Source: Cyanidioschyzon merolae (taxonomy: Eukaryota). From it: a stretch of 64,000 nt of DNA. Location of the stretch: assembly GCA_000091205.1 (NCBI GenBank), contig AP006498.2, one strand, 5' to 3'. Below the pieces are notes generated by a model. That model did no database searches, was not told where the DNA came from, and saw only the letters and a list, made by a program, of their open reading frames with translations. A program made the position numbers and the translations under genes. This document shows positions 2,646-59,295 of the stretch, one piece after another. Each line of letters starts with the position of its first letter. Positions within the stretch are counted from its first letter, which is position 1.

Positions 2646-3736
2646 GATCACCGGCAGCTCCGGATGGAGAATTTCTGATGAAAAGAAACGAAAAGTCGAT
2701 TATGTAGAATACAGAGGCTCCAAACCAGGGATTCCTCCCTCGTACAATCGTTTTGTTGGTTGAATAGAGCTCGGCAGCTCCGGATGGAGAATTTCTGATG
2801 AAAAGAAACGAAAAGTCGATTACGTAGAATACAGAGGCTCCAAACCAGGGATTCCTCGTCATGCAAATCGTTTTGTCGGTAGAATAGAGCTCGGCAGCTC
2901 CGAATGGAGAATTCCTGATGAAAAGAAACGAAAAGTCGATTACGTAGAATACAGAGGCTCCAAACCAGGGATTCCTCCTTCGTACAATCGTTTTGTTGGT
3001 TGAAAAGAGCTCGGCAGCTCCGGATGGAGAATTCCTGATGAAAAGAAACGAAAAGTCGATTATGTAGAATACAGAGGCTCCAGACCAGGGATTCCTCCTT
3101 CGTACAACCGTTTTGTTGGTTGAAAAGAGCTCGGCAGCTCCGGATGGAGAATTCCTGATGAAAAGAAACGAAAAGTCGATTACGTAGAATACAGAGGCTC
3201 CAAACCAGGGATTCCTCCTTCGTACAATCGTTTTGTTGGTTGAAAAGAGCTCGGCAGCTCCGGATGGAGAATTCCTGATGAAAAGAAACGAAAAGTCGAT
3301 TATGTAGAATACAGAGGCTCCAGACCAGGGATTCCTCCTTCGTACAATCGTTTTGTTGGTTGAAAAGAGCTCGGCAGCTCCGGATGGAGAATTCCTGATG
3401 AAAAGAAACGAAAAGTCGATTACGTAGAATACAGAGGCTCCAAACCAGGGATTCCTCCTTCGTACAACCGTTTTGTTGGTTGAAAAGAGCTCGGCAGCTC
3501 CGGATGGAGAATTCCTGATGAAAAGAAACGAAAAGTCGATTACGTAGAATACAGAGGCTCCAGACCAGGGATTCCTCCTTCGTACAATCGTTTTGTTGGT
3601 TGAAAAGAGCTCGGCAGCTCCGGATGGAGAATTCCTGATGAAAAGAAACGAAAAGTCGATTACGTAGAATACAGAGGCTCCAGACCAGGGATTCCTCCTT
3701 CGTACAACCGTTTTGTTGGTTGAATAGAGCTCGGCT
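2646..3736. repeat. Tandem satellite, 120-bp unit x 9 full copies plus a partial one
   Basis: The unit 'cggcagctccggatggagaatt(t/c)ctgatgaaaagaaacgaaaagtcgatta(t/c)gtagaatacagaggctcca(a/g)accagggattcctcc...caa(t/c)cgttttgttggttgaa(a/t)agagct' starts at 2652, 2772, 2892 and so on up to 3612. Copies are about 93-98% identical and the few variable positions recur in a mixed pattern. Confidence 0.95.
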
Positions 3737-22729: not shown

Positions 22730-23099
22730 CTCGAGCCCGCACCTGAGTGTCTCCGTATCCCACGCCTTGCGTAAAAGAGTCACCACAGCAGGTAGTGGTA
22801 GTGGTGGTGGATATCGAACTCGGAGAATGTTATCCGCCGTTGGCAGGGGTGCGCTGGTAGCCGCCCCAAGAACGCATACTTCAACAACTCGTTGGACTAC
22901 ATCGAGCGTAGCGCATAAACAGCGCGCCTGTCAGCCTCCAAGAGTAACGTATGACAACGCTGCTCCAGAGCGGCTGCCTGCACGGTTCCGAAACTGCCCT
23001 GCAAACCTGTCTGTTTTTCTTCCACGGCGTCCCGCAACGCCTGCATCCGCGCCTTGCCGATGACACTGTATGCGGCAGGTCCCTGTTCCGGCCTGTACC

Positions 23100-23228
23100 G
23101 TGAAACGCCTGACGTGTCCAGTGGATGCGTGCGGATGGCGGACGCCTACCGCGATGCGTGGCGCTGCGTGAAACGCGTGACGTGTCCAGTGGATGCGTGC
23201 GGATGGCGGACGCCTGCCGCGATGCGCA
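23100..23228. repeat. Tandem duplication, about 68-bp period x 2
   Basis: 'gtgaaacgc(c/g)tgacgtgtccagtggatgcgtgcggatggcggacgcct(a/g)ccgcgatgcg' occurs at 23100 and again at 23168. Confidence 0.8.
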
Positions 23229-35980: not shown

Positions 35981-36185
35981 CAAAACAATGCACCGAAAAC
36001 GATCGCGTGATGGAAAAGCAACCTGGGAGAGGAGGCGCACATGCCGAAAACAATGCACCGAAAACAATCGCATGATGATAAACCTCCCCAAGAAAGGAGG
36101 CACACGTGCCGAAAACAATTTACCCAAAGCGATCGCGTGATCATAGACCTCCCCAAGAAGGAAGGCACACGTGCGCAATGCTGCC
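35981..36185. repeat. Tandem repeat, about 65-bp unit x 3
   Basis: Three successive copies of 'cgaaaacaatgcaccgaaaac(g/a)atcgc(g/a)tgatg...cc(t/c)ccccaagaa(a)gga(a)ggc(g)cacatgc'. Confidence 0.7.
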
Positions 36186-38428: not shown

Positions 38429-39205
38429 TTACGACGGCTTCCACTTGATACTACATCCGATGCTCGGCAGTTGATTTTCCGGAGGTGACTGTCCATTCAC
38501 GCATAACTGGATGGCGTTCCGGAGGTCCTCACCTGTCACAGGAATATCGTTTCCGGGTCTACTGCCGTCCAAACGCCCCCTATAGAACAGCTTGCGCTCG
38601 TGATCCAGAAGGTAAAAGTCGGGCGTGCACGCGGCTTTCCAGCCACGAGCAACATCCTGTGTTTCATCGTAGAGAATCGGAAACTGATAGCGACGCGTTT
38701 TGATTTCCTCCGCCATACGCTCCGGTGCGTCGTCCGGGTGTGTTCCGACAAAGTTACTGCTGATGCCAACCATTTTCACCGGGCCAAACTTTCCAGAACT
38801 AATATCTGCACTCAACCGAGAGAGCTCGCCAGCAATGTGCTTCACAAAAGGACAGTGCGCAGCCAAGAACACCACAACGAGGGCTTTCGGCGGCGGACTG
38901 TCCGCGTAGAGCGAATCGAGAGACACGATTTCTCCTGTAGTTACGTCGGGTAAAGCAAACGCCGGCATAACCGTGCCGAGTTCAACCATAGCAGACTCCG
39001 TACGAACCATTTGAAGCTGTTGAAACGTGCTTCTAGCAGACGGCAAGCGCGTACCCCGGCTGACTCGTCGCGCAGTGCGAGCTTCGCTCCGCACAGACGC
39101 TGTTCGTCGTCCCCGAACAAGGCCTTGGCTCACTGGCCTTGTCGTCGTAAGCCTAGGTGCTAGCAAGAACCCCAAGTATCCCTTGACGCATGCAGTGGCT
39201 CGCAT
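38429..39205 (-). CDS. Thioredoxin-fold redoxin (AhpC/TSA/TlpA-like) with an N-terminal organellar transit peptide
   Basis: Thioredoxin-like core 'FALPDVTTGEIVSLDSLYADSPPPKALVVVFLAAHCPFVKHIAGELSRL' (CP-F active-site region) ... 'YQFPILYDETQDVARGWKAACTPDFYLLDHERKLFYRGRLD'. It is preceded by an Arg/Ser/Thr-rich presequence 'MRATACVKGYLGFLLAPRLTTTRPVSQGLVRGRRTASVRSEARTARRVSRGTRLPSA'. The track ORF starts at TTG 39220; the first ATG is 39205. Later ATGs at 39010 and 38989 are possible if the upstream part is junk derived from the transposon. Confidence 0.55.
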   Translation of the reverse strand: MRATACVKGYLGFLLAPRLTTTRPVSQGLVRGRRTASVRSEARTARRVSRGTRLPSARSTFQQLQMVRTESAMVELGTVMPAFALPDVTTGEIVSLDSLYADSPPPKALVVVFLAAHCPFVKHIAGELSRLSADISSGKFGPVKMVGISSNFVGTHPDDAPERMAEEIKTRRYQFPILYDETQDVARGWKAACTPDFYLLDHERKLFYRGRLDGSRPGNDIPVTGEDLRNAIQLCVNGQSPPENQLPSIGCSIKWKPS

Positions 39206-41381
39206 GCGCTCCAGTTGCAAATGCTTCTGGCGGCACAGTCGAGACGCTGCGGTCGGCAGTACAGTAGTGGCGAGAAACCCGCCGTAAACACGACGTCTGC
39301 CACTGACGTGCAGACGCCTCCCAGCCTTTCTCGACCGGCACCCACTACTGCTTCCAACTTCTTCTCATATAATTCCACTTTTAGAGGTTGTCCAATAAAG
39401 TTCACTCTTGTGGACCTTCGGGGTCTTTTCTCGAGCACTGCAGATCTTACATTGATCGCAGCATTGAAGTCACGATTCACAAACTCAATCCGTTTCTTTC
39501 CGTTGGTTGTACGTACTAATGCAAGTAGTCCACGAACTTTCGCCATCTTTTTCATTTGCTCTTCCGTCAGCGGTCCGTATTTTTTTATATCCTCAGGGTT
39601 CCGCTGACACTTTTCCATCTCCACTCTCTGAAGTGTACAACCCAGTTCATGGTGTGTATAAGACGTTCGAAACTCATCTATCGGTATCATAACGAAACGC
39701 CGTGTACACTCCTTGTACGTTCTTGTCGTTGGAGCTGGCGTAGTTCCTTTTTGGGTCTTCCAACGCCCTGCTCAGTATGCCACAACGAGCCTCTGACTTT
39801 GATCCTCTTTGAAGGCACTCAACTGATTGAAAAATTCGCGAATGCACGCTGCTTACCACAGTATAGCTTCATTCGCAAACGAGCCCACCGGGGCTTTGTA
39901 TACTCCTCCCACAGCGGCTTCCAGTGAGCAACAGGAACTTCCATGATTTTCCGAAAAGCATCAAAGTCCGCTCCTCGGCTCGTCACCTCGCTCAAAGTTT
40001 CCAGGTGCTCTTTCATTCCTGAATTGCAAGTCTCGATGTTCTTCGTCGTATTCAATATACGGGATTCTCGGTAATATCTCGCTCTCGAGAACCTCAACAG
40101 ACGCATGTCTTTCTGAAGTAAGTTGCCGTCAGTACGAGCTTCCGCACTCCTGGGTACTGCGATGGTAATGATGTTAGTGCTCCCGGGGTCCGCGCCAACG
40201 ACAAAGTCGTTATCCTGCACTTTCTGTGTGGCAGGATCCGAATCCTTCTTTTCATCATGCTTCGCCGCGTCAACGACATGGTCGTTATCCTGCACCTCCT
40301 GTGTCGCAGGATCCGCCTCCTTCTCATATTCATGGTTCGCCGAGGGCGGAACTGGACGACCTTTCTTCAACAGCCGATAGTTTACACACTAGGCTACTCC
40401 ATCGGTTTCGATGATCCCAGTGAATACCTTTTGCTTGCTCACTTTGAGACGTTTGAAATCGAAGATATTCTTCCAGTGCGTCTCCCGGTTTTCACCGGAG
40501 AATTCCTCCCTGTTGACACTGAACTCCGGACTGATCTCCTTCATGATGCCGTGAAGGATTCTGGAGTCGATAGTCATAAAAAGTGACTTGATGTTGCACA
40601 TTGGAACCATGTTGAACCGCTTCCCCATTAGGACAGCCTTCCGTCTCTCCCACTCTTCATTGCTTTCCTCACTCAGCTTCATCTCTGCCTTGGGATCGAG
40701 CTCTCGGTCCAAAAACAGGAAATAGCGCAGGACGAGGCGATAGTATCTTTCCTTATCTTTTTTCAACTCTGATACGTTCTCTGCTGGATTCGCAAACCCT
40801 AGTACCGCACGATGCTCTTGTATAACCGCACGCATTACAGAAGCTTCATTCGTGAACTAGTTTGACGCTTTCTTGTCAACGAATTCGACCTCATCTTCAC
40901 GCTTACGATCTTTCGTGACGCCATTGATAATCGCACATTTCCCATTGCGAGATAGGCCCAGGTAGAGTGCAACCACGGCGCGTATCATGAAACGTTCGAG
41001 GTTCGTTGTCAAATGGTTCTTCAGGTTCGTGATGCACTTCATCGCCCCATAGTCGTAAATATCCCGGTCACCCCTGTATCAAATACCGTTGGAGATGTAA
41101 AAGGAGTATTTTTGGCAGAGGGCGTGCACTCGCTCATTTTCCGTCCGCGTTCCCCCTGTGCCAAGCATCAGGTGACGAATAAAGGTCGTGTCGAACAACT
41201 CGTCTGGAACCTCGACTGTTTCCATGTGCGTCACGTCTTCATACATCTCCCTCGCCAAATGCATCAGTCCTGACGACGCCTTGACAAAACTCTTGGAGTA
41301 CGAATCGACACGGTTTCTGATAGCGTCTCGCAACTTTTCCTTGTACGGATTTTTGATATGTTTAAGAAGACCGGCTTTCAC
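39160..41381 (-). mobile_element. Decayed TnpB/Fanzor-like (OMEGA-family RuvC nuclease) gene, most complete copy of a dispersed family
   Basis: Five consecutive minus-strand ORFs in shifting frames: 41079-41381, 40857-41042, 40389-40835, 39819-40370 and 39160-39690. Together they carry a RuvC-I-like '[17 protein letters not shown]', the zinc-finger-region block 'IPIDEFRTSYTHHELGCTLQRVEMEKC', and RuvC-III 'IEFVNRDFNAAINVRSAV'. The interval is visibly AT-richer than the neighbouring genes. Three further fragments of the family occur in the window. Confidence 0.55.
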
Positions 41382-42511: not shown

Positions 42512-42680
42512 TCGCCTCTATGGGATACTACAATCGATGCTCGCCTCTATAGGATACTACAATCGATACTCGCCTATATGGGATACTACAATCGATACTC
42601 GCCTCTATGGGATACTACAATCGATACTCGCATCTGATGATGCTACAGTCGATGTGCGCCTCTGATGATGCCGTGCACGC
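42512..42680. repeat. Tandem repeat, 29-bp unit x about 5.5
   Basis: 'tcgcctctatgggatactacaatcgat(g/a)c' repeats at 42512, 42541, 42570 and 42599, then degenerates into 'tcgcatctgatgatgctacagtcgatgtgcgcctctgatgatgc'. Confidence 0.8.
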
Positions 42681-42873: not shown

Positions 42874-44241
42874 ATGTTTCAGTTCGCGGTGCTGAAGCTG
42901 ACGCGTACGCCCAGGTGCGCTGGGCACACGGCACCGCGTTCGTTGCAGGCTGCTTCTGGGGCAAAGTTTAGGCTGCGCTCGGAGCGACTCAGGTATCATG
43001 TCGCTTCTCTTGCGCTCCGTGCGGCGCTGGATACAGACTATGAGGGCTGCTTGTCCGAAAGCAGCGTCGTCGAAACCTGCAACGAAGCCCCGTTGCTCCT
43101 GCGGGTCTTGCGCTGCGACCCCAGCGTGCCGCGGCCACCGGTATGGTTCATGCGTCAGGCCGGCCGCTACATGAGCGCGTTTCGGATGTACTCTGGGCGT
43201 TATGCGTTCCGCGAGCGTGCCGAAACACCTGAAATCGCTGTCGAGCTTTCGCTGCAGCCGTGGAGAGCGTTCGGAGTGGACGCCGTCATCATGTTCGCAG
43301 ATATTTTGACCCCCTTGCCGCCCATGGGCCTTGACTACCAAATCGTATCCGGACAGGGTCCATCGATTAAAACTCCTGTTCGATGCATGGAGGATGTTGA
43401 GCTTGTGCGTCCGCTCACCCCCGAGGATACAGAGACAGCACTTAGCTTCGTGGGAACGACACTCTCGACGCTTGCGCATACGCTTGCAGACGCTCGTCCG
43501 AGACCGGCGCTGCTTGGATTTCTGGGTGCACCCTTCACGCTCGCTGCATACGGGATCGAGGGCGAAGGCGGACGGGCCTCATCAGGCAAGCAGGTGAAGC
43601 GCATGATGTACACAGCAGAAGGCCGAGAACTCATGCATCGATTACTGCAGAAAATCACACAGAGCATGATCGTTTTTGCAGCTTACCAGGCTCGAAAAGG
43701 AGCTGAGGCGATTCAGATTTTCGACTCTTGGGCCCACTTGCTTAGCCCCGAGGATTACCAGGAGTTTTCGCTCTTCTACGTGGAAGAATTGGTACGCGGA
43801 ATCCGTGCGCATGGCGTCGAAACTCCATTGATCTTCTTTGCAAATGGGTCGTGTGGTAAGTTGGGGGTCATCTCTGCGATGTATCCAGCGGATACGAGGG
43901 AAGCCAACGGATACCGGGGTCTCGATGCGCTCGCCCTGGACTGGCGAACGAGCATCGCAGAGGCGCGTCAGCTGTTTGGCAAGCGAGCGGTGCTCCAGGG
44001 CAACATCGATCCAACGGTATTGGCGTGCGGCGACACTGCCAGCGTGAAGGCAGCCATTGATCGTTGTGTTTGCGCTGCGTCGGGTGGTGCGCATATCCTC
44101 AATGTGGGCCGTGGTATTCAGCCGGATACCCCCGAGGAAATGGTCGCGCTCTTCTGTGAGCACGTTCGAGCTCTTCCAGAGACAGACTGGTATCAGCAGT
44201 TGCGACATCGGCACCTGGTTGAAAATGGAGTGCCAGGATAG
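42874..44241 (+). CDS. UROD: Uroporphyrinogen decarboxylase (HemE/UROD) with an N-terminal targeting extension
   Basis: Canonical 'PPVWFMRQAGRYMSAFRMY' N-terminal motif, then 'FGVDAVIMFADILTPLPPMGLDY' and 'LLGFLGAPFTLAAY'; the length and collinearity fit URO-D throughout. About 75 aa of Arg/Ala/Ser-rich presequence precede the core. The track ORF starts at TTG 42853; the first ATG is 42874. Confidence 0.9.
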   Translation: MFQFAVLKLTRTPRCAGHTAPRSLQAASGAKFRLRSERLRYHVASLALRAALDTDYEGCLSESSVVETCNEAPLLLRVLRCDPSVPRPPVWFMRQAGRYMSAFRMYSGRYAFRERAETPEIAVELSLQPWRAFGVDAVIMFADILTPLPPMGLDYQIVSGQGPSIKTPVRCMEDVELVRPLTPEDTETALSFVGTTLSTLAHTLADARPRPALLGFLGAPFTLAAYGIEGEGGRASSGKQVKRMMYTAEGRELMHRLLQKITQSMIVFAAYQARKGAEAIQIFDSWAHLLSPEDYQEFSLFYVEELVRGIRAHGVETPLIFFANGSCGKLGVISAMYPADTREANGYRGLDALALDWRTSIAEARQLFGKRAVLQGNIDPTVLACGDTASVKAAIDRCVCAASGGAHILNVGRGIQPDTPEEMVALFCEHVRALPETDWYQQLRHRHLVENGVPG

Positions 44242-45769: not shown

Positions 45770-47143
45770 ATGTCCATAGGCTCGGCTTCTTCTTTTCTGG
45801 TGCAGAGGATTTCGCTTACGATGCGCCAACAGCTCGCTTCTTTCCTCGGACTACTGCTGTTGTGGCGCGGGCGCAGTTTTCTGGTCCGGCGCGCTGTGAA
45901 ACGATCGCCACACCTGCACCAACCAGCCGTGGTGCTCTTTGTGCTCTGTAACGTTATTCTAGGATGGAGTCTACTGGCCTCCCTGGGCGTCGACTGGGCA
46001 CGTTTCCTCAAACTGTTCGCTGCTGGCGGCAGTTGTGCGGTTCTGATGCACGTACTCACGACGCCTGTCGACGTTGTACGTACTAAAATGCAGCTCGAAC
46101 CTGAACGCTATCCTTCAGTTTTGGCCTGCGTTTCTCGGATTATCAACGAAGATGGCCCGTTTATGTTTCTTCAGGGGTTTGGCGCCACTGCCTTAGGGTA
46201 TCTGATACATGGTGGCCTCAAGTACGCCGTATATGAGCAGTTACGAACGCTGACGATGGTGCTGACGCGCACACCAGCTGGCCAGCCGCTATCGTCGCTT
46301 CACTTTGTCACTTCTGCGACAGTGGCTGAACTAGTAGCATCGACAGCGCTGTGCCCGCTGGAGTCGGTACGGATTCGAATGGTCCAGGATCGGACGTTTG
46401 CGCGAGATGTCTGGCAGGGTCTGGCGCAAGTGTGGGCCGAGGGCTCCCGCAGCATGTACAAAGGGCTGATGCCGCTGATCGCCAAACAGTGCCCGTATAC
46501 TTTGGCTCAGTTTTGGACCTACGAGTGGTTGCTGGCTGGACTGCGGGCCACATGGATAGGTCGAAACGCACCGTTGGACGCTCAGCTGCCTGTGTCTCTG
46601 GAACGGCGCCTGTCGCTTCTTGCGGGCCTGCTCAGCGGGATCGCAGCCGCGTTCGCCAGCCAACCGGGAGACACGATCCTGAGCCGCATCAACAAACATC
46701 ATGCCGGTCTCGCGGGTTTAATGTTGACAGAAATCGGACAGGCTCTGTCGACGCCACCCGGTGCGGAAACAGACGCGAACATTCGCTCGCCGAGTGCATC
46801 CTTGTCCCCGACTGTGGCGGACAAGAATCGAAAACAGATGCAACCGAATGAAATCCCAATGAGGGCTGATCAAGGGTCTGCATCGAATATGAAACGTTTT
46901 CTTTTCGAGCGATTTCGACTGAGATCAGCCACTTGTATGTGGCTCGATTCGATCCGACAGTCCTGGATGGATATGTGGACGATTGCGAGAGAATTAGGGC
47001 CACGAGGCATGTTTCTCGGCTTTGTTCCGCGTTGTGCTCAAGTCATGATCCTCGTAAGTGGCCAGTTTCTGTTCTATGCAGAGATCAAGGCGTTCTTTGG
47101 TATACCGGAAACGCTTGGACGTGGATCCACACATCGACCATGA
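45770..47143 (+). CDS. Mitochondrial phosphate carrier (SLC25A3/MIR1-like) with an about 90-aa insertion in the third repeat
   Basis: 'GGSCAVLMHVLTTPVDVVRTKMQLEPERYPS', 'GFGATALGYLIHGGLKYAVYEQ', 'CPLESVRIRMVQDRTFARDVWQG', 'SQPGDTILSRINK' and the C-terminal 'LGFVPRCAQVMILVSGQFLFYAEIKAFFG' align with phosphate-carrier blocks ('TPLDLVKCRMQVD', 'CPMEAVKVRVQTQPGFA', 'SHPADTVVSKLNQ', 'IIMIGTLTALQWFIYD'). It starts at an ATG. Confidence 0.8.
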   Translation: MSIGSASSFLVQRISLTMRQQLASFLGLLLLWRGRSFLVRRAVKRSPHLHQPAVVLFVLCNVILGWSLLASLGVDWARFLKLFAAGGSCAVLMHVLTTPVDVVRTKMQLEPERYPSVLACVSRIINEDGPFMFLQGFGATALGYLIHGGLKYAVYEQLRTLTMVLTRTPAGQPLSSLHFVTSATVAELVASTALCPLESVRIRMVQDRTFARDVWQGLAQVWAEGSRSMYKGLMPLIAKQCPYTLAQFWTYEWLLAGLRATWIGRNAPLDAQLPVSLERRLSLLAGLLSGIAAAFASQPGDTILSRINKHHAGLAGLMLTEIGQALSTPPGAETDANIRSPSASLSPTVADKNRKQMQPNEIPMRADQGSASNMKRFLFERFRLRSATCMWLDSIRQSWMDMWTIARELGPRGMFLGFVPRCAQVMILVSGQFLFYAEIKAFFGIPETLGRGSTHRP

Positions 47144-47173: not shown

Positions 47174-47915
47174 CCGTATTCCGGAAGCGGCGCGACGACT
47201 GTTGGGTACGCATGCCCCAATGCATCCCTCGCGGGATCTTTGTACAGCATCCAGTCTGCAGGGCATACGACGCAATCGCCAGCCCTGCATCATGGTCGAT
47301 TTCCTCGTGGTTGTAAACGACCGCAAGCCATACAGCATGCGCTTTGCTTGTTGCCTGGAAAGCGATCATCGCTACGATATCCACCGGCATGCAGGGTAAG
47401 CGCTGTGCGAGCTCGCCGTAAAGTGCTCCACCCCAGCGCCAATCGTCTCATATGTTTCATTCTGGAGCACAAGGCGCCGTCCTCAACGGATATGAGCGTC
47501 GTGCACCTCTGGACAACGCCGGGCATGGTAGAGGATCGAAACGTTCCGCGACATGCGGCGGCATGAGCGGAACGCGATTGTGGATCCCGCGTACTCGACG
47601 ACCTCTGGAAAGCGTTGTGAACCCAGGCACTTGGTGGAAACGATGCATAAGGTCGCTGGATTCCGTGGTGTTCAGCAAGATTAGCTCTGTCACATGTCAA
47701 TCATCTTTGAATGCGACGAGCTGCGTGCTGGAGCGCCCACAGGCACCCGGCGCAACGTATCCGGTACACGATGTTGCCATGGGTGACGTCCCCTGGTGTA
47801 AACAATGCACGAGCCGCATCACTGCTGCATAAAGACTAGCCGGTGGAGAAGGTGAAGCTCCGGTTGCTCGATGAATCAAAGCCCAAGGCGAGATGCAGCC
47901 AACGCAATCAATAAA

Positions 47916-48192
47916 GTGATGCTCACCGCACGAAAGAAACCCATTCGGTATCAGACGCATAATTGAGTAGACTTGTATGGATTGTCCGTACAGTGACGCT
48001 CACCGCATGGAACAAACCCATGCGGTATCAGACGCATGATTGAGTAGACTTGTATGGATTGTCCGTACAGTGATGCACACCGCACGAAAGAAACCCATGC
48101 GGTATCAGACGCATAATTGAGTAGACTTGTATGAATTGTCCGTACAGTGATGCTCACCGCACGAAACGAACCCATGCATTATCAGACGCATG
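47916..48192. repeat. Tandem repeat, 77-bp unit x about 3.6
   Basis: 'gtga(t/c)gc(t/a)caccgca(c/t)g(a/g)aa(g/c)aaacccat(g/t)cggtatcagacgcat(a/g)attgagtagacttgtatg(g/a)attgtccgtaca' begins at 47916, 47992, 48069 and 48146. A (CGT)7 run follows at about 48229-48250. Confidence 0.85.
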
Positions 48193-48644
48193 ATTGACTT
48201 GAATGCCCGCACCGCTTCGTGTGTAAAGCGTCGTCGTCGTCGTCGTCGACTCGGGCAGCTTCATGCGGATTCACGCTTGGCGGGCTGGTTCGAGTCTCGA
48301 CCGCAAGATCGTCTAGAGCAAACGCGCTTGCTGGCAGCCATTGGTCTTTCAACGATGCCGTTGTACCCAAGCGCCTCTATCAGAAACCTTCACAAGAGAT
48401 ATTGTAAACACCCCGTAGTGCCCTGCTCGGTCACGCACGAACCCGAATCGCAGGCACATCATCTCCGTCTCAAGCGAGCAGCATACCTCAGCAAACGCGA
48501 TGAAGATCGCCTGCTTGCAGCGCTTCACAGTAAGCTTTCCACGACTTTGTCGAATAAGCCAACACCTGGTCACGAAAAGCGGCATCATCGGCAATGGTGA
48601 CGCAAAGCGCGCTCGGTCGTAAACAAGTGCAAACGTGACTCTAT

Positions 48645-50249
48645 TCATGAAAATGACCGTAGATCGCGCTCGTGGATACCCAACAGGAACAAGATGGAGG
48701 TGAGACTCTTGCTCTGAATCTTGCCGCCAATATTGGTGCCATCCCGAGCCCCTGGTTGTTCAAAGGCGATGGATAGACCCGCCGAGTCAAGCATTTTGGC
48801 GGACACTGGCCCGTCACCTACCGCAATAATCTGCTCCGGGCTGAGCTGCTCGCGCATCGCCAGCATGGTCAGCAGCTCTGCTTTCCGCTCTCCGTTGACG
48901 AGAGGCTCCAAGATCGCTCCGGTGAAACGCTCATTGCTGTCCGTTTCAAGACGATTGGCCGCAACGAAATCAATACCGAGGTCTGCTTTCACAAGCTCTG
49001 CCAAGAGCAAGGGCCCCGACGACAGCACCGCCGTTCGGTAGCCGAGTTTCTTGAGTACGCGACAGACCGAAGCGGCTCCATCGGTATATTCGATAAGCGC
49101 GTGTAGTCTTTCTGCTAAGCCAGTGCTCGATCGACCGCGAAGGAGCGCAGCACACGCTCGCAAGTAGTCTTCGGATCCGAGCGAGTGACAACGGCGCACT
49201 TCCGCGACTGCATCCGCATCCACTGCAGCCGCCTGGCAGAGGAGCTCGAAGCTATCCGCCTGGACCAGTGTCCACGACAGATCGAAAACGACCATTCGCT
49301 TCGTCCGCAATGCTCCTGCTCGCTCGAAAGCGATATCGACGAGAAACTCCTTGCCCAAATGCAGCAGTTCGCTGCGAACGCGGTCTGCCAAAGGGCCCCG
49401 CAGTGCTGCCATCACCTGAAAACAGGTACTGCGGCCCCCTGGCTCGTTCAATGACTGAATGGCATTCAAATTGATGCCGTTTTCAGCGAGGACATGCGTT
49501 GCTGTTGCCAAGAAATCAGCGGGAATGCGCGGTGTGCCTATAAAGGTGAACGTGTACGGCTCACCGGAGTCACCTTCAAGAGCTGCATTCGATTCTGCTT
49601 CGAGGGAGTCGAGCACCTCAAACTCGGTCTCGATCCCGCCCAGCTCATAGGCTGTCAAGAGAAACTCCCGTAGAAGGTACCCCTCGATGCCGAATTCGTG
49701 CTCGATGTGTGCCTCAGTTGAGCTCAGCGTCCCGCCAGGTTCAGCAGGGCTTCCAACTCCAAACGACTGCGGTGCCGAACCGCTCGTCGACTCTGTGCTC
49801 ATAGCTTCTGTTCCTGTTTCAGTAGATCGACGTTTTCGGAGCTGCGTGGGCGTCACTTCAACAGCCAGTGTGGCTGTGAATCGGTTTCCGACCGTAAACG
49901 ACGAGAGATCTCGCAGCTGCACGACGTCTCCGGCTTGAGCGAGCAGCGACAGAAACCGTGAGAGCCAGCTCGGCTGCACAGCGCCGTGGAGCGTAATCAC
50001 AAGCAGTCGTTTGCTGTGCGTTGAACCACGCTCTTTAGGTCGCTTACGTGGACTCGAGCGCGATGGACTCATCACTGACCCAGATATCGACGAACGAAAA
50101 CGCGAACACCCTTGCCGGTCACGCAGAAGCGAAAGCGCCATCTGTAGCAGCTTTGGGTCGTCGTTGTGATGGATTCCGTGAACGGAGCGGTTGTTCATGC
50201 CATACTGGCGGGAGCGAGGACGACAAGAGCGACTTTCGAGGCGCATCAT
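48645..50249 (-). CDS. Phosphoserine-phosphatase (SerB)-like HAD protein with an N-terminal ACT-like region; catalytic motifs partly degenerate
   Basis: The C-terminal 250 aa are collinear with SerB. 'FTGAILEPLVNGERKAELLTMLAMREQLSPEQIIAVGDGPVSAKMLDSAGLSIAF' corresponds to E. coli 'FTGNVIGDIVDAQYKAKTLTRLAQEYEIPLAQTVAIGDGANDLPMIKAAGLGIAY'. HAD motif I reads 'VVFDLSWTL' (DxDxT becomes DxSxT). Motif II Ser is kept in 'VLSSGPL'. Motif IV 'GDGPVS' lacks the second acidic residue. The N-terminal 280 aa have an ACT-like alpha/beta character. It starts at an ATG. Confidence 0.6.
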   Translation of the reverse strand: MMRLESRSCRPRSRQYGMNNRSVHGIHHNDDPKLLQMALSLLRDRQGCSRFRSSISGSVMSPSRSSPRKRPKERGSTHSKRLLVITLHGAVQPSWLSRFLSLLAQAGDVVQLRDLSSFTVGNRFTATLAVEVTPTQLRKRRSTETGTEAMSTESTSGSAPQSFGVGSPAEPGGTLSSTEAHIEHEFGIEGYLLREFLLTAYELGGIETEFEVLDSLEAESNAALEGDSGEPYTFTFIGTPRIPADFLATATHVLAENGINLNAIQSLNEPGGRSTCFQVMAALRGPLADRVRSELLHLGKEFLVDIAFERAGALRTKRMVVFDLSWTLVQADSFELLCQAAAVDADAVAEVRRCHSLGSEDYLRACAALLRGRSSTGLAERLHALIEYTDGAASVCRVLKKLGYRTAVLSSGPLLLAELVKADLGIDFVAANRLETDSNERFTGAILEPLVNGERKAELLTMLAMREQLSPEQIIAVGDGPVSAKMLDSAGLSIAFEQPGARDGTNIGGKIQSKSLTSILFLLGIHERDLRSFS

Positions 50250-50893
50250 CGGAAGCGTTGCCGGAAAGTGTCGGAAGCCATTGCCTCAGCGTTTTTGCAT
50301 GAGTCCAGACAATGCTTGATAACGCTCGCTGCCTGTTCTATGGTTTTCGCTCCGGTTCGGAGTCGACGTATCGATGCTAGCAGGCACGCGTGCATGCGTA
50401 TTAGACCAAAACACACTGGATGAAAGGCTGTTCACGAGACATCCCGGACCAGCCGCTCCAGACAGCGTGGCATGCAAACCCGCCCTAAAACGCGACGTCG
50501 ACGAGCCGGGGGTATGCTGCAGTATCTTCACGCGGAATGGTGTGTGCTGACGGTTCGCTTTCGACGGTACCCTTTACGAACCGGAGCGCATGCCTGCAAC
50601 TGCAACGGTCTCGCTCTACGGACTAACAACGTCGTCAAGGGAGCTGCATACGCAGCCGTTGCGGGAATCGTCACTGGTGGCGAGCCTATATGACTGCTGG
50701 CTCGAGCACGTGTGTCGTTGTCTGCGTTCTGATCATCAACGCGTGCCTCTCCTTTGTACAAGTCATCAACTTGTCAGTATCGTTTACACGTTCAGTCTAC
50801 GTTGCCTGCCACTGTGCCTCACTATCTCGCAGGACGGTGCCTTCAAAAAACCGGCGAGCGGTCGACGCACCCCGCCGTCCAGCACACGCTCGC

Positions 50894-51361
50894 CTACGCC
50901 GAGCGATTGTACGTTCCTTTGGCGTAGCCCGCATATCCGATTTGCCCAAAGATAAGCAAAGCAAACAACCCCACGTGATATACGATCAGGTAGAACCAGA
51001 ACGGGTCATCCAGCTTTGGTCCAGTTGGGTACTGCGCCAGCAGACGCTGAATCGACGCCAGAAACGCCTGCGTCAGGCCAGTGCCACCCAGAACGGGTAT
51101 GTTCGATGGGATAGCGGCTACTGCGCTCCAACCGATAAGCGCAATAAAAATAACAGCAGGGTTCAGTGGGTACGGCTCACCGTCGGATACCTCAAACATG
51201 CGAAGAGAAGACGCACCCACGAGACGCTGGGGACGCGACAGCGCGATGCGCACTGGAGCCACCCGCGCTGCTCGTGTGGTGAAGCTGCAGCGAGCTGCAC
51301 ACGTGCACTGCTGCCGCTGCAAGGCCGACGCCACTGGTAATACACTAACAAAGCCGTACAT
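50894..51361 (-). CDS. PSAO: Photosystem I subunit O (PsaO)-like small two-TM membrane protein with a transit peptide
   Basis: The mature part 'AVIFIALIGWSAVAAIPSNIPVLGGTGLTQAFLASIQRLLAQYPTGPKLDDPFWFYLIVYHVGLFALLIFGQIGYAGY' matches, from memory, plant PsaO 'VVGFGLIGWLAPSSIPAINGKSLTGLFFDSIGTELAHFPTPPALTSQFWLWLVTWHLGLFLCLTFGQIGFKG'. It has an Ala/Arg/Ser-rich presequence. The track ORF starts at TTG 51367; the first ATG is 51361. Confidence 0.5.
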   Translation of the reverse strand: MYGFVSVLPVASALQRQQCTCAARCSFTTRAARVAPVRIALSRPQRLVGASSLRMFEVSDGEPYPLNPAVIFIALIGWSAVAAIPSNIPVLGGTGLTQAFLASIQRLLAQYPTGPKLDDPFWFYLIVYHVGLFALLIFGQIGYAGYAKGTYNRSA

Positions 51362-52088
51362 GTTCAAGTTTCGTTCTCGAGGTTCCGCTGGGCGTGGTTA
51401 TGGTGCTCGAGCGCTTCCAAACGCTTCAGCACGATGTGTCAATCACAGATTCCGATGCATCGCGTGGGAAGTGCGCGGGGGAGCTCGCGCATTGCAAACC
51501 CTTCCTCAAGATCAATCCCTCATTGTCCAATTATATACATAAAGTTCACTTAATATTCCACTTAGAACAGTTTCCTCGGGAGCGTTTCGCTCATGCAGCA
51601 TCGCAGGCTGTGCATCGCAGATCGCCGCCGGGTGCATCGCCCAGCGCGCCGATTCCGCAGCACAGCGGCGTTGACGAGATCGCGTCGCTCGGACTCGAGG
51701 ATGGATCGTGCGCGCTGCAACGCTGCTATGGCTGGATAGAGCGCACGTTTTCCCGACGTCAGCGACATTGTGTAGATAGGTTGGGCGCTTGAAAAGGTGA
51801 CGTCACAAGCCTGTTGGGCTCACGGTAACCAGCAGGGAGCAATCACTCGTCGATCACCGCTGGTTTCTAAAACTGGAGGGTTTCTTTGCGCGTTACGCTA
51901 CGTGTGAACGCGCTGATACCGCTGCTAGAGCGCGAAGAGCAACCCTCAGACCTCAAGCGGTTCGCTCGGAGGCCACATCAATTGGACAGCTCGCTCCAGG
52001 TGTGCGCGTCTTGTCCGTTGGAGACCGCCGGACCCAGTTGAACTGTTGCAGTGACCTGGAAGCTTTGGCGACCTGAGCGTCTGCGGTC

Positions 52089-54017
52089 ATGCGAAGCAGG
52101 TACTGCTTTTTGTTGTCAAGCACGCCCTGTAAGTACGCTGGGCAGCGTAGTCCGTTCCCTGCCAGCGCATTAGCGGGCGTATGTGCCGGAGGGCGGCTCC
52201 GCAACGTTACGCGCAACCTTCGGCCGGGGCTCCGTACTTTGCGTGCCTCAGCTGAAACAGAGCATTCGCAAGGCACCCGCCAAGCACAGTATGACTTTAT
52301 CATCGTTGGCGCTGGTGCGGCCGGCTGCGTGCTCGCTAACCGCCTATCAACGGCCCAGTTCAGCAATGGAGACCGCCGGTATCCCCGTGTACTCCTGCTG
52401 GAAGCAGGTGACGCACTCGCGGAGGCGCCGTACTTCGAGCACATTCCCCTTGGATTTCCTCAGCTGATCGGAAGCCGCCTCGACTATGGCTTTTTTTCAC
52501 GCGAGAATCCTACCCATTTGGGTGGTCGTGGAGCAGTCTACCTTCCGCGAGGTCGCGGCGAGGGAGGCTCCCATGCGATCTCGGTGATGTTGGTGCATCG
52601 TGGCTCGCGTCACGACTATGAAACGTGGGTGAAAGATTACGAGGCTCTCGGATGGGGGCCGGATGACGTCCTCCCGTACTTCAAACGGCTGGAATCGAAT
52701 GAAAGAACAGCGCAGCGGGGCGCCGACGGGGAGGCAGCGACGGCGCTGCACGGCTCGGACGGACCGCTCCGAGTGTCGGACCAGCGCTCTCCGAACCCGC
52801 TGTCGTTAGCGTTCATTGAAGCATGTCTCGAACGCGGTATCCGGCGCAACAAAGACTTTAATGATTGGGACCATGGTCAAGAGGGCGCCGGTCTCTTCCA
52901 GGTCACCCAGCGAGACGGCCGGCGCGAAAGCCCAGCGACTGCCTATCTGCAACCGGTGCGGTCGCGCCGAAACTTGCACATTGAGACGAATGCACTCGCT
53001 GAACACCTCGTCTGGTCCAAGGACGGTCGTCGCGTCGAGGGTATTCGTTTCATTGATCGACATGGGCGCCGACGTGCAGCGCTCGCGCACTGCGAGGTGA
53101 TTCTTGCGGCGGGTGCTATTAACACGCCCCAGTTGCTGATGCTCTCCGGATTAGGTCCGGGTGCACATTTACAAGACTTTGGCATACCCGTGGTGCGAGA
53201 CCTTCCCGGGGTAGGCCAGAACCTCCAGGATCATGCGGCAGTGATGCTTTCGTACTACGCCCCGGATCCTTATGGTAAGGATCGGGACAAGAAGCGCATA
53301 TTCTACACCGAGCGCCTAGGAAAAGATCCACTGGTACTTGCCGAGTACTTTTTGCTAGGAAGAGGGCCCTTGACCTCGCCTGTGTGCGAGGCCGGTGCTT
53401 TTGTTCACACGCAGGCGGTGATCGGCGAGCCCAGCTGTGATCTGCAGCTTCGCTTTGTGCCGTTTTTCTCCGATGCAGATCCGTACAAGAGCCTCGGCGA
53501 ATATCGCAGTGGAGGTCATGTGCTAACGAATACCAGCATTCGTCCAGCAGGTTTTGGTTTGCAGGCTGTTGCGATCCGCCCGCGGAGTCGTGGTCGGATC
53601 GAGCTTGCGACGATCGACCCACGAGCACGCCCCATTATCCACACTGGATGGCTAGAGGACAAGCGAGACCTGCAGACCCTGCTCTCGGGACTGAAGCTGG
53701 GCCGAGAGATTCTCTCCGGCGACTCGATGCGCCCCTATCGTGGGCGAGAAGCATTCCCAGAAACGTTAGAGGACGATCTCGTGACCTACATCCGCCGCAC
53801 GTGCCATACAGCGAATGCGATCGTTGGCACGGCACGTATGGGAACAGGGCGCGATGCGGTTGTCGACCCTGAGCTTCGTGTCCACGGTGTTGAGCGACTG
53901 CGGGTAATCGATGCCTCTGTCATGCCGAAAATTATTGGCGGCCAGACGGGGGTTCCGACGATGATGATCGCCGAGCGTGGTGCTGATTTGGTGAAAAAGA
54001 CTTGGAAACTGGTGTAA
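52089..54017 (+). CDS. GMC-family FAD oxidoreductase (choline dehydrogenase-like)
   Basis: N-terminal Rossmann FAD motif 'YDFIIVGAGAAGCVLANRLS', the GMC signature region 'GGSHAISVMLVHRGSRHDYETW', and a C-terminal substrate domain with 'CHTANAIVGTARMG' (active-site His region) and 'VHGVERLRVIDASVMP'. An Arg/Ser-rich presequence of about 60 aa precedes the FAD motif. It starts at an ATG. Confidence 0.85.
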   Translation: MRSRYCFLLSSTPCKYAGQRSPFPASALAGVCAGGRLRNVTRNLRPGLRTLRASAETEHSQGTRQAQYDFIIVGAGAAGCVLANRLSTAQFSNGDRRYPRVLLLEAGDALAEAPYFEHIPLGFPQLIGSRLDYGFFSRENPTHLGGRGAVYLPRGRGEGGSHAISVMLVHRGSRHDYETWVKDYEALGWGPDDVLPYFKRLESNERTAQRGADGEAATALHGSDGPLRVSDQRSPNPLSLAFIEACLERGIRRNKDFNDWDHGQEGAGLFQVTQRDGRRESPATAYLQPVRSRRNLHIETNALAEHLVWSKDGRRVEGIRFIDRHGRRRAALAHCEVILAAGAINTPQLLMLSGLGPGAHLQDFGIPVVRDLPGVGQNLQDHAAVMLSYYAPDPYGKDRDKKRIFYTERLGKDPLVLAEYFLLGRGPLTSPVCEAGAFVHTQAVIGEPSCDLQLRFVPFFSDADPYKSLGEYRSGGHVLTNTSIRPAGFGLQAVAIRPRSRGRIELATIDPRARPIIHTGWLEDKRDLQTLLSGLKLGREILSGDSMRPYRGREAFPETLEDDLVTYIRRTCHTANAIVGTARMGTGRDAVVDPELRVHGVERLRVIDASVMPKIIGGQTGVPTMMIAERGADLVKKTWKLV

Positions 54018-56036: not shown

Positions 56037-56900
56037 ATGTTTCCGCTCGTGATGCAGCGGCAACTCCTTGAGGCGAATATGGCACACGGTTTATCTTTTT
56101 GCTTTGTAGCAGCGTTTGGTTCGGGTAAAACACGCACCTGGAGGCAACAGCAGCTCGACCAGCGGTGCCGACCTCAGCACCGGAGACCGCAGTTGGCAGT
56201 GACGGCGACGCTGCTTGAACGTGAGCTGATTGCAGGGTCTGCTCGCGGAGCTGCCCTGGAAACCTTCAAACTCTTTTTCCGGTGCCAGCCGGGGCGTTGG
56301 CGCTCAGAACGTTGCTACTTTTATCGAGAGACCGCGGATGTTGCCGACAGGGGCGGAGAAAGCGTGGAACGCTCGGAAACGCTGTTCCAAGTCGAGCCAC
56401 TGACGGCGGAAACGACCACCAAGGTGCTGCGGGACAACGGAACGGACGAGTCGAAACTTATCAGCGAAGGTTTCCATTCGTTGGAATACGCTGCTGGGTT
56501 TAAAGTCTCGTTTAATACGAGAATGGAGCACAGCGGTGATGTAAGCGCGAGCACGAATTTACTTTTCGTTCCGCAGGTGCTGGACGTGCAGCTCGCTCGA
56601 CAACTAGGTCTCGTGCGTGGCCTCTATTTCCGCGACAAGGGTTACGAAGAAGACCGGCCGATTGTTGGTCAGTTCGAGTTTCATGTCACGACGCGTGAAC
56701 TTGTAATGGTGACGGCTTACGCGCGTACAGTTAGTGTTGATCGCATTCTACTTTGCAGTGAGCGCCAGAGACTGCGACAAATCGCCAACTATCGCCGGCC
56801 AGAGGCGTGGCAGAGGGACGCTCCCTTGGATCGGAACCGGTCGTTGTTGACGGAAGTGCGTCTCCTTGGTGCCGGTATCGAAGACCGACTGCCAGACTAA
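56037..56900 (+). CDS. Hypothetical protein
   Basis: 287-aa ORF from an ATG and the longest frame in the interval. I recognise no family. It lies between the dispersed-repeat fragment and a convergent small ORF. Confidence 0.3.
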   Translation: MFPLVMQRQLLEANMAHGLSFCFVAAFGSGKTRTWRQQQLDQRCRPQHRRPQLAVTATLLERELIAGSARGAALETFKLFFRCQPGRWRSERCYFYRETADVADRGGESVERSETLFQVEPLTAETTTKVLRDNGTDESKLISEGFHSLEYAAGFKVSFNTRMEHSGDVSASTNLLFVPQVLDVQLARQLGLVRGLYFRDKGYEEDRPIVGQFEFHVTTRELVMVTAYARTVSVDRILLCSERQRLRQIANYRRPEAWQRDAPLDRNRSLLTEVRLLGAGIEDRLPD

Positions 56901-57603: not shown

Positions 57604-59295
57604 ATGGTTCGCGAGCCAACCTTCGTGCCCTGTCACCTGAAAAGTGCTCGAACGCGTTTCGTCCACGCGTGTGCTCTTGGAGTTTGTGAGCGAGCGACAA
57701 CGCGACATGGCGCACAGCTATCGATTCGCAAAGCACGAGTGAGCGGGCACAGCGCGCCCGCAACGCACCTGCGGCACCGAGGCGGCACCCGGGACCTCGT
57801 TGCTCGCAGTTTTGGAGAGCCACCCTTCGAAGGCGACCTCGACTCGGAACGAGACTGGAAAGCGGCAGCCAACTACGATGCACCGGCGCCGAGCGCAGTC
57901 TCTCCGTGTTTTCCACTACTAGACTGGCAGGTGCCGTCTCTGCGTGCAGCTGAGGAGCGCTGGCTCGCCGAGGAAGTCCGTCTTTGGTTAGACCGAGAAT
58001 GGGAGCCGCTTGCAGCACACCGGGAGATAGGTGAAAAAGCTGCGAAAGCGGCACTTGACGCACGCATGGCGTTAGAGGGTAGCGGCAGGACCGCCAAGTT
58101 CGGTGAAGTTCTCATCACTGTTGCCTCTGAACTGGAGCGCGGCCCGAATCACCAGGTGGGTCGCGACTCCTGGAGAGAAGCCTATGTGAATCCCTTTGAT
58201 GTCGCCAACAAAGTAAGTGACCTGTACATGGTCCGGTATTTTGTAGAAACGGAACTTACTGCACCTGCGGAGGACGAGTCCGACGCGACGGACATCGATT
58301 CGAGCTGGACCGCGCTACCCCTCTCGGACACCTGTCGTTGCACTTGTCTGGATTATGAAGATATTTTGGCGATTCAAAAGCGGGCACGAGATCTGGGCCT
58401 CTCCGTTGGCCGGATCGCTTACGATAAATCGCGCCTCGGCGGTCAGGCGCAAGTGCGAAAGAACCGCACGGATACTGGGGCATCACCAACTGGAAGCAGC
58501 GTCTACGAGCGCAGCTATGCTGCAGACCATGTGGACAAAACGATACAAAGCTTTGACGATGTAATGTACCGGGAGCGAGTCCTCTATGAAGCTCTGAGAA
58601 CTAAGCGTCTCGTTCAGGAGCGAGGTCTGTATGGCGATTTTGCGCTGGGATGCAACGAAGAATACGTGAAGGCGGCGTTTCCATCAGACAAGGTCTGGGG
58701 CTGGGACCCCGACCCACACCAGCAATCGGATGCGAGACCACCATCAATGCCGATCGAGTCGACACCGTTTGATGGCATCGTGGGCTCCATTCGCGATGTT
58801 CACCCCTTCGATAGGCATGTTTTCTTTATGGGAACGCTCTACGGCGATATCCCGAGCGTAGTCGTGAATCGCGTGGTCTCCGAGACCGCACGCTTAGCAA
58901 ATCATACCATGCTGCTCCATCATGATTTTGACGTAGAAGCATTATTACGCGGGGTAGATGGCACCGATGCGATCGTTGACCAGCTGAATGGGTTATCGGT
59001 TGAGGTCGCATTTCGGGCGCTGCGCCCAGCACCGGCTGCAGCGACGTCTCAAGGCGATTCCGCCGCAGCGGAAGCGCACATGGCGGGAACGCAGTCTGAT
59101 GCAGGCACGCATGCAGCAGACGCGGATGCAGATGCAGAGCTGCGGATGCAAATTCAACGCGATCTTGATCTGCTCATCGAGACGCTGTATGGTGAGGTGG
59201 CTGCTCAGGTAGCGCTCCAAGAGAAGGATCGGAGTTTCCGAGTACGTTCCGCAATCGTACGGTACTTGGCTGCTTTCACTTGGGGTACACCCTGA
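57604..59295 (+). CDS. Hypothetical protein (563 aa)
   Basis: Long uninterrupted ORF from an ATG, with sense-frame codon bias, an Arg/His-rich N-terminus and an acidic Ala/Asp-rich C-terminal tail. I recognise no domain. Confidence 0.4.
   Translation: MVREPTFVPCHLKSARTRFVHACALGVCERATTRHGAQLSIRKARVSGHSAPATHLRHRGGTRDLVARSFGEPPFEGDLDSERDWKAAANYDAPAPSAVSPCFPLLDWQVPSLRAAEERWLAEEVRLWLDREWEPLAAHREIGEKAAKAALDARMALEGSGRTAKFGEVLITVASELERGPNHQVGRDSWREAYVNPFDVANKVSDLYMVRYFVETELTAPAEDESDATDIDSSWTALPLSDTCRCTCLDYEDILAIQKRARDLGLSVGRIAYDKSRLGGQAQVRKNRTDTGASPTGSSVYERSYAADHVDKTIQSFDDVMYRERVLYEALRTKRLVQERGLYGDFALGCNEEYVKAAFPSDKVWGWDPDPHQQSDARPPSMPIESTPFDGIVGSIRDVHPFDRHVFFMGTLYGDIPSVVVNRVVSETARLANHTMLLHHDFDVEALLRGVDGTDAIVDQLNGLSVEVAFRALRPAPAAATSQGDSAAAEAHMAGTQSDAGTHAADADADAELRMQIQRDLDLLIETLYGEVAAQVALQEKDRSFRVRSAIVRYLAAFTWGTP

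Follow-up and report, generated by a model that had tools for sequence, protein, structure and literature searches.

In this study, we asked what is encoded by a short open reading frame on the minus strand of a 64,000-nucleotide stretch of DNA (the window) and what kind of organism the stretch comes from. The original prediction was that the product is a PsaO-like two-helix subunit of photosystem I (PSI) with an Ala/Arg/Ser-rich presequence, and that the host is a photosynthetic unicellular alga with a primary plastid rather than an oomycete. The features of the reading frame are as follows.

50894..51361, minus strand: psaO coding sequence (CMP086C), 155 codons plus a TAG stop, without intron
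51197..51361, minus strand: putative N-terminal plastid presequence (transit peptide), residues 1 to ~50-55
50912..51163, minus strand: PsaO transmembrane domain, residues 67-150, Pfam PF22832
51098..51166, minus strand: predicted transmembrane helix 1, residues ~66-88 (LNPAVIFIALIGWSAVAAIPSNI), Kyte-Doolittle peak 2.03
50930..51004, minus strand: predicted transmembrane helix 2, residues ~120-144 (PFWFYLIVYHVGLFALLIFGQIGYA), Kyte-Doolittle peak 2.01

The boundaries were read from the open reading frame listing and from the sequence itself, with the TAG stop at 50894-50896 and the ATG start at 51361, and the full translation (155 aa) is MYGFVSVLPVASALQRQQCTCAARCSFTTRAARVAPVRIALSRPQRLVGASSLRMFEVSDGEPYPLNPAVIFIALIGWSAVAAIPSNIPVLGGTGLTQAFLASIQRLLAQYPTGPKLDDPFWFYLIVYHVGLFALLIFGQIGYAGYAKGTYNRSA. 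A TTG at 51367, two codons 5' of the ATG, was dropped as a start codon, given the eukaryotic host and the deposited protein, whose first codon is the ATG at 51361. The core motif that the original prediction gave for PsaO was present in the translation at almost every letter (LIGWSAVAAIPSNIPVLGGTGLTQAFLASIQRLLAQYPTGPKLDDPFWFYLIVYHVGLFALLIFGQIG), the only two deviations being LTQ for LTG and YPT for FPT. On the opposite strand, a long open reading frame of 216 aa (50690..51340, plus strand) overlaps the psaO region, which raises the alternative that it is the real gene and that the coding signal on the minus strand is spurious. However, the antisense frame had no match in the Pfam search, and GC-rich coding DNA can be expected to contain frames of such length by chance, whereas the minus-strand frame has a strong PsaO family match and its identical protein has been observed in solved PSI structures. 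We therefore rejected the antisense frame as a gene, and the probability that it is the true one is negligible.

We then took the minus-strand product as the query against Pfam-A. The profile search that the original prediction had called for returned a single match, PsaO_TMD (PF22832; E=4.2e-27). At 94.8 bits, where the gathering score is 27, this match lies far outside what chance would give, and residues 67-150 were aligned with profile positions 9-90 of 91. A Kyte-Doolittle scan with 19-residue windows, in which scores above 1.4 were taken as hydrophobic, gave two segments at residues ~66-88 and ~120-144. These two segments fit a two-helix membrane protein, as predicted, and the helices themselves are visible in the structures of the identical protein. 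At E<=0.01, 27 distinct chain sequences in the PDB matched the product; every one is chain O of its entry, and almost all carry the name PsaO or photosystem I subunit O. According to the literature cited for them, the sources of these matches include a red alga (5ZGB), a green alga (6SL5), a moss (7KSQ) and a land plant (5ZJI).

The best PDB match was 5ZGB chain O, which is identical to the product at 155/155 positions (338.7 bits). In 6FOS and 7BLZ, chain O is shorter and spans precursor residues 51-148 and 56-152, respectively. An exact-sequence look-up in a collection of 15 billion proteins showed that the product is BAM81737.1, XP_005537773.1 and UniProt M1VFJ4 (UniRef100_M1VFJ4) of Cyanidioschyzon merolae 10D, and that BAM81737.1 is encoded on a 908,485-bp record. 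The profile match, together with 100% identity to the PsaO chain of solved PSI structures, supports the prediction of PsaO, and by its sequence the frame is identified as the C. merolae PsaO gene itself and not merely as a PsaO-like one. The product is called 'hypothetical protein, conserved' in GenBank and RefSeq, but 'Photosystem I subunit O' in UniProt and UniRef and PsaO in the PDB. The GenBank name is annotation lag and not contrary evidence, and it bears out for this gene the remark that annotators often overlook PsaO. In a proteomics paper of 2026, PsaO has the locus name CMP086C and the protein is reported as detected (PMC13306765). This locus name fits the neighbourhood, since BAM81740.1 (CYME_CMP089C) lies three accessions further on.

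To place psaO in its genomic context, we compared the neighbouring genes with the same protein collection. The neighbours are listed below.

38429-39205, minus strand: AhpC/redoxin family protein, BAM81733, exact C. merolae 10D match
42874-44241, plus strand: uroporphyrinogen decarboxylase (UROD), BAM81734, exact C. merolae 10D match
45770-47143, plus strand: mitochondrial phosphate translocator, BAM81735, exact C. merolae 10D match
48645-50249, minus strand: HAD-family open reading frame, 534 aa from the first ATG, HAD domain starting only at residue 320, with no family assigned to the long N-terminal half
52089-54017, plus strand: GMC oxidoreductase, BAM81738, exact C. merolae 10D match
56037-56900, plus strand: CpeS-like protein, BAM81739, exact C. 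merolae 10D match
57604-59295, plus strand: CYME_CMP089C ('hypothetical protein CYME_CMP089C'), BAM81740, exact C. merolae 10D match

The six exactly matching neighbours (BAM81733, 81734, 81735, 81738, 81739 and 81740) are all on the 908,485-bp record that carries psaO, and their accessions place psaO three genes before CMP089C. Because psaO and these six proteins match consecutive accessions of one record exactly, the window is identified as C. merolae nuclear DNA. The same matches show that the prediction was right to assign the DNA to a unicellular, photosynthetic alga whose plastid is primary, and not to an oomycete. Elsewhere in the window are ordinary eukaryotic nuclear genes, encoding an XPD-type helicase, a Myb protein, PdxS/SNZ, a PP5 phosphatase, a GH35 beta-galactosidase, a protein kinase and an mRNA cap guanine-N7 methyltransferase. 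A tRNA scan of the whole 64-kb window found no tRNA genes, and an Rfam scan of the same window found no Rfam families. The identification of psaO, by fixing the window as C. merolae nuclear DNA, provides the context for other findings there.

The original wording, 'picoalga or unicellular alga', held for the second term; the first, which suggests a green prasinophyte, did not, as the host is a cyanidiophycean red alga. A green-lineage picoalga of the Ostreococcus or Micromonas kind would agree with the compact, intron-poor and GC-rich character of the window (48-60% per 2 kb) and with a psaO presequence rich in A/R/S. However, the product has the C. merolae 10D sequence to the letter, and its six neighbours carry that genome's consecutive accessions. 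In the PDB, PsaO proteins of the green lineage and plants reach no more than 52-74 bits, compared with 339 for C. merolae and 258 for the next match (8WEY), and a CpeS-like bilin-lyase gene 4.7 kb from psaO fits a phycobilisome-bearing alga, not a green one. A green source is thus extremely improbable.

The same PsaO protein was also found on two public contigs, one from an ENA metagenome and one from the Logan assembly of an SRA run. These are 99.1-99.7% identical to the window DNA, indicating that close variants of the alga exist in public data. This incomplete identity, a 77-bp tandem repeat that differs in copy number on one public contig, and the absence from the protein collection of the 534-aa HAD frame as read in the window would together agree with an environmental relative or another Cyanidioschyzon strain as the source instead of 10D. 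In contrast, seven of the eight proteins tested are letter-perfect against the strain 10D entries in GenBank. The HAD frame (48645-50249), which unlike the tested neighbours had no exact sequence in the collection, is most simply explained by a differing annotated start codon; the reference annotation of this gene (presumably BAM81736) probably uses another one. Strain 10D is therefore retained as the source, and another strain is very unlikely.

Several tandem repeats were observed between the genes of the window. In one array (2652-3735), a 120-bp unit is repeated nine times with 96% identity. A 77-bp unit is repeated 3.7 times at 47915-48197, between the phosphate-translocator and HAD hydrolase genes, and metagenome contig L001 aligned with the window in two overlapping blocks that are offset by this repeat, which suggests another copy number in a close relative. 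A 29-bp repeat with ~4-5 copies (42512-42671) precedes the UROD start codon by ~200 bp, and other short intergenic arrays are located at 23099-23226, 35982-36174 and 40190-40342.

With the gene and host identified, we examined the N-terminus of the precursor. The first 50 residues contain 16 A+S+T and 7 R+K but no D/E, so the Ala/Arg/Ser-rich presequence of the original prediction was borne out. Aromatic residues lie near the N-terminus (MYGF...), a position typical of red-algal transit peptides. The deposited PSI O chains of C. merolae start at precursor residue 51 (6FOS) or 56 (7BLZ), and although these starts may be a choice of construct or modelling, they suggest cleavage around residues 50-56. 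The acid-free presequence would direct import into the primary plastid and would then be removed. The gene itself is nuclear, as psaO lies among eukaryotic nuclear genes for the XPD helicase, the mRNA cap methyltransferase, PP5 and mitochondrial carriers on the 908,485-bp record. A secondary-plastid (stramenopile) origin with a bipartite signal was rejected, given the exact identification as a red alga.

The N-terminal extensions that had also been predicted for UROD, the redoxin and the GMC oxidoreductase were confirmed, with Pfam domains starting at residues 81, 82 and 68 of the respective frames; the domain of the CpeS-like protein starts at residue 78. The first 50 residues of UROD, the redoxin and the GMC oxidoreductase are basic, rich in Ala/Ser/Thr and almost without acidic residues, whereas those of the CpeS-like protein fit less well (8 A+S+T, 8 R+K and 2 D/E). 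In the redoxin (BAM81733.1, AhpC/TSA type, 38429-39205, minus strand; 'hypothetical protein, conserved'), the extension of ~75 aa is very Arg-rich, and related proteins called in metagenomes have a length of only 186 aa, which means that the gene callers left out the presequence.

A search of the same stretch for other photosynthesis genes, which the original prediction had proposed as a check, yielded UROD, a CpeS-like putative bilin lyase and the fatty acid photodecarboxylase homologue CmFAP. CmFAP is the GMC oxidoreductase at 52089-54017 on the plus strand (UniProt M1VK13 / BAM81738.1), called 'probable dehydrogenase' in GenBank. Among solved structures, its best relative is 5NCC, the fatty acid photodecarboxylase of Chlorella (E=2.4e-107), which outscores the next GMC enzyme by ~100 bits. 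The alignment of CmFAP with CvFAP contains a conserved Cys (query ...pvCeaGAFV...) and a conserved Arg (query ...lqlRFVP...), which we take to be the catalytic C432 and R451. M1VK13 has already been cloned as the fatty acid photodecarboxylase 'CmFAP', minus 64 N-terminal residues (bioRxiv 10.1101/640474). The CpeS-like protein BAM81739.1 (287 aa), named 'hypothetical protein, conserved' or 'Uncharacterized', matched Pfam CpeS (PF09367) with E=4.3e-15 behind an N-terminal extension of ~75 aa, and a PDB sequence search gave no match for it. It is probably a CpcS/CpeS-type phycobilin lyase that serves phycobiliprotein assembly.

Within ~18 kb, psaO is thus accompanied by four further genes with plastid-type N-terminal extensions (peroxiredoxin-like, UROD, CmFAP and the CpeS-like bilin lyase), and it diverges from the nearest of them across a short spacer.

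51362..52088, no strand: divergent spacer between psaO (minus strand) and the GMC-FAP homologue (plus strand), 727 bp between start codons

This spacer presumably holds both promoters. We consider it unlikely that the neighbourhood is a jointly regulated cluster, responsive to light for example, in which psaO and CmFAP share a bidirectional promoter, rather than a chance adjacency in a very compact genome.

To relate the gene to its function, we drew on published work for the position of PsaO in PSI, its pigments and its role. PsaO, a peripheral PSI core subunit specific to eukaryotes, occurs in red algae, green algae, plants and cryptophytes but in neither cyanobacteria nor diatoms (PMC10291030). 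The red-algal host of the window falls within this distribution of eukaryotic phototrophs (PMC10291030, PMC8669154). In red-algal PSI, PsaO sits at the PsaL/PsaA/PsaK side (PMC8669154). The C. merolae protein coordinates three chlorophylls at the interface of antenna and core, and its pigment bridges help excitation to equilibrate between the Lhcr antenna and the core (PMC13416822). The membership of the present product in PSI follows from its identity to the experimentally observed chain, and its position and three chlorophylls are those of the published reports (PMC8669154, PMC13416822).

Taken together, the nuclear psaO of C. merolae almost certainly encodes a plastid-imported precursor of a two-helix subunit at the edge of PSI that bridges antenna and core pigments, and apart from minor caveats nothing found contradicts this explanation. 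The precursor of 155 aa would be synthesised in the cytosol, and its basic, hydroxylated and acid-free presequence (~50-55 aa) would carry it across the two-membrane envelope of the primary plastid. Removal of the presequence around residues 50-56 would leave a mature PsaO of ~100 aa, whose two helices would enter the thylakoid membrane beside PsaL and PsaA. At the edge of the PSI core, on the PsaL/PsaA/PsaK side, the mature protein with its three chlorophylls a would act as a pigment bridge through which excitation energy moves between the peripheral antenna and the core. The gene, the protein, its place in PSI and its pigments are already known, having been published and deposited since 2018. 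As a discovery, psaO therefore matters little, since gene and structure were already characterised. The case does show that a short membrane protein can be recognised from a consensus motif, and that the product names of psaO and of the neighbouring CpeS-like gene in GenBank and RefSeq are still 'hypothetical protein'.

Finally, we compared psaO with known PsaO proteins. Against the C. merolae 10D PsaO (CMP086C; chain O of 5ZGB, 5ZGH, 6FOS and 7BLZ), it is the same gene in the same neighbourhood, without differences. Chain O of PDB 8WEY ('Photosystem I subunit O'), an entry that we take to be the PSI-LHCI of Cyanidium caldarium, is also 155 aa long and was aligned over residues 1-154 with 258 bits and E=2.8e-76. 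The mature parts of the two proteins are nearly identical, whereas the presequences diverge strongly at residues ~13 to 47. In the PSI-LHCI of Cyanidium caldarium, PsaO occupies the same position in the PSI core and was modelled from Y64 to Y146 (PMC10945839), a span that matches the Pfam domain boundaries found here in C. merolae psaO. C. caldarium has two PsaO paralogues (PMC10945839), whereas one copy was seen within the 64-kb window of C. merolae. Green-lineage and plant PsaO proteins (5ZJI in PSI-LHCI-LHCII, 6SL5 and 7KSQ) belong to the same Pfam family, with scores of 52-74 bits, and share the two-helix core and its LIGW...FGQIG motifs. Plant PsaO reportedly helps phosphorylated LHCII to dock in state transitions. 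To our knowledge, red algae, C. merolae included, have no LHCII, and C. merolae PsaO therefore cannot share this docking role. LHCII binds PSI-LHCI in the green lineage (PMC8669154), and the PsaO proteins of that lineage and of plants have in common with the red-algal one that they are eukaryote-specific and lie at the same side of the PSI core (PMC8669154, PMC10291030). C. merolae PsaO forms a chlorophyll bridge adjoining the Lhcr antenna (PMC13416822).
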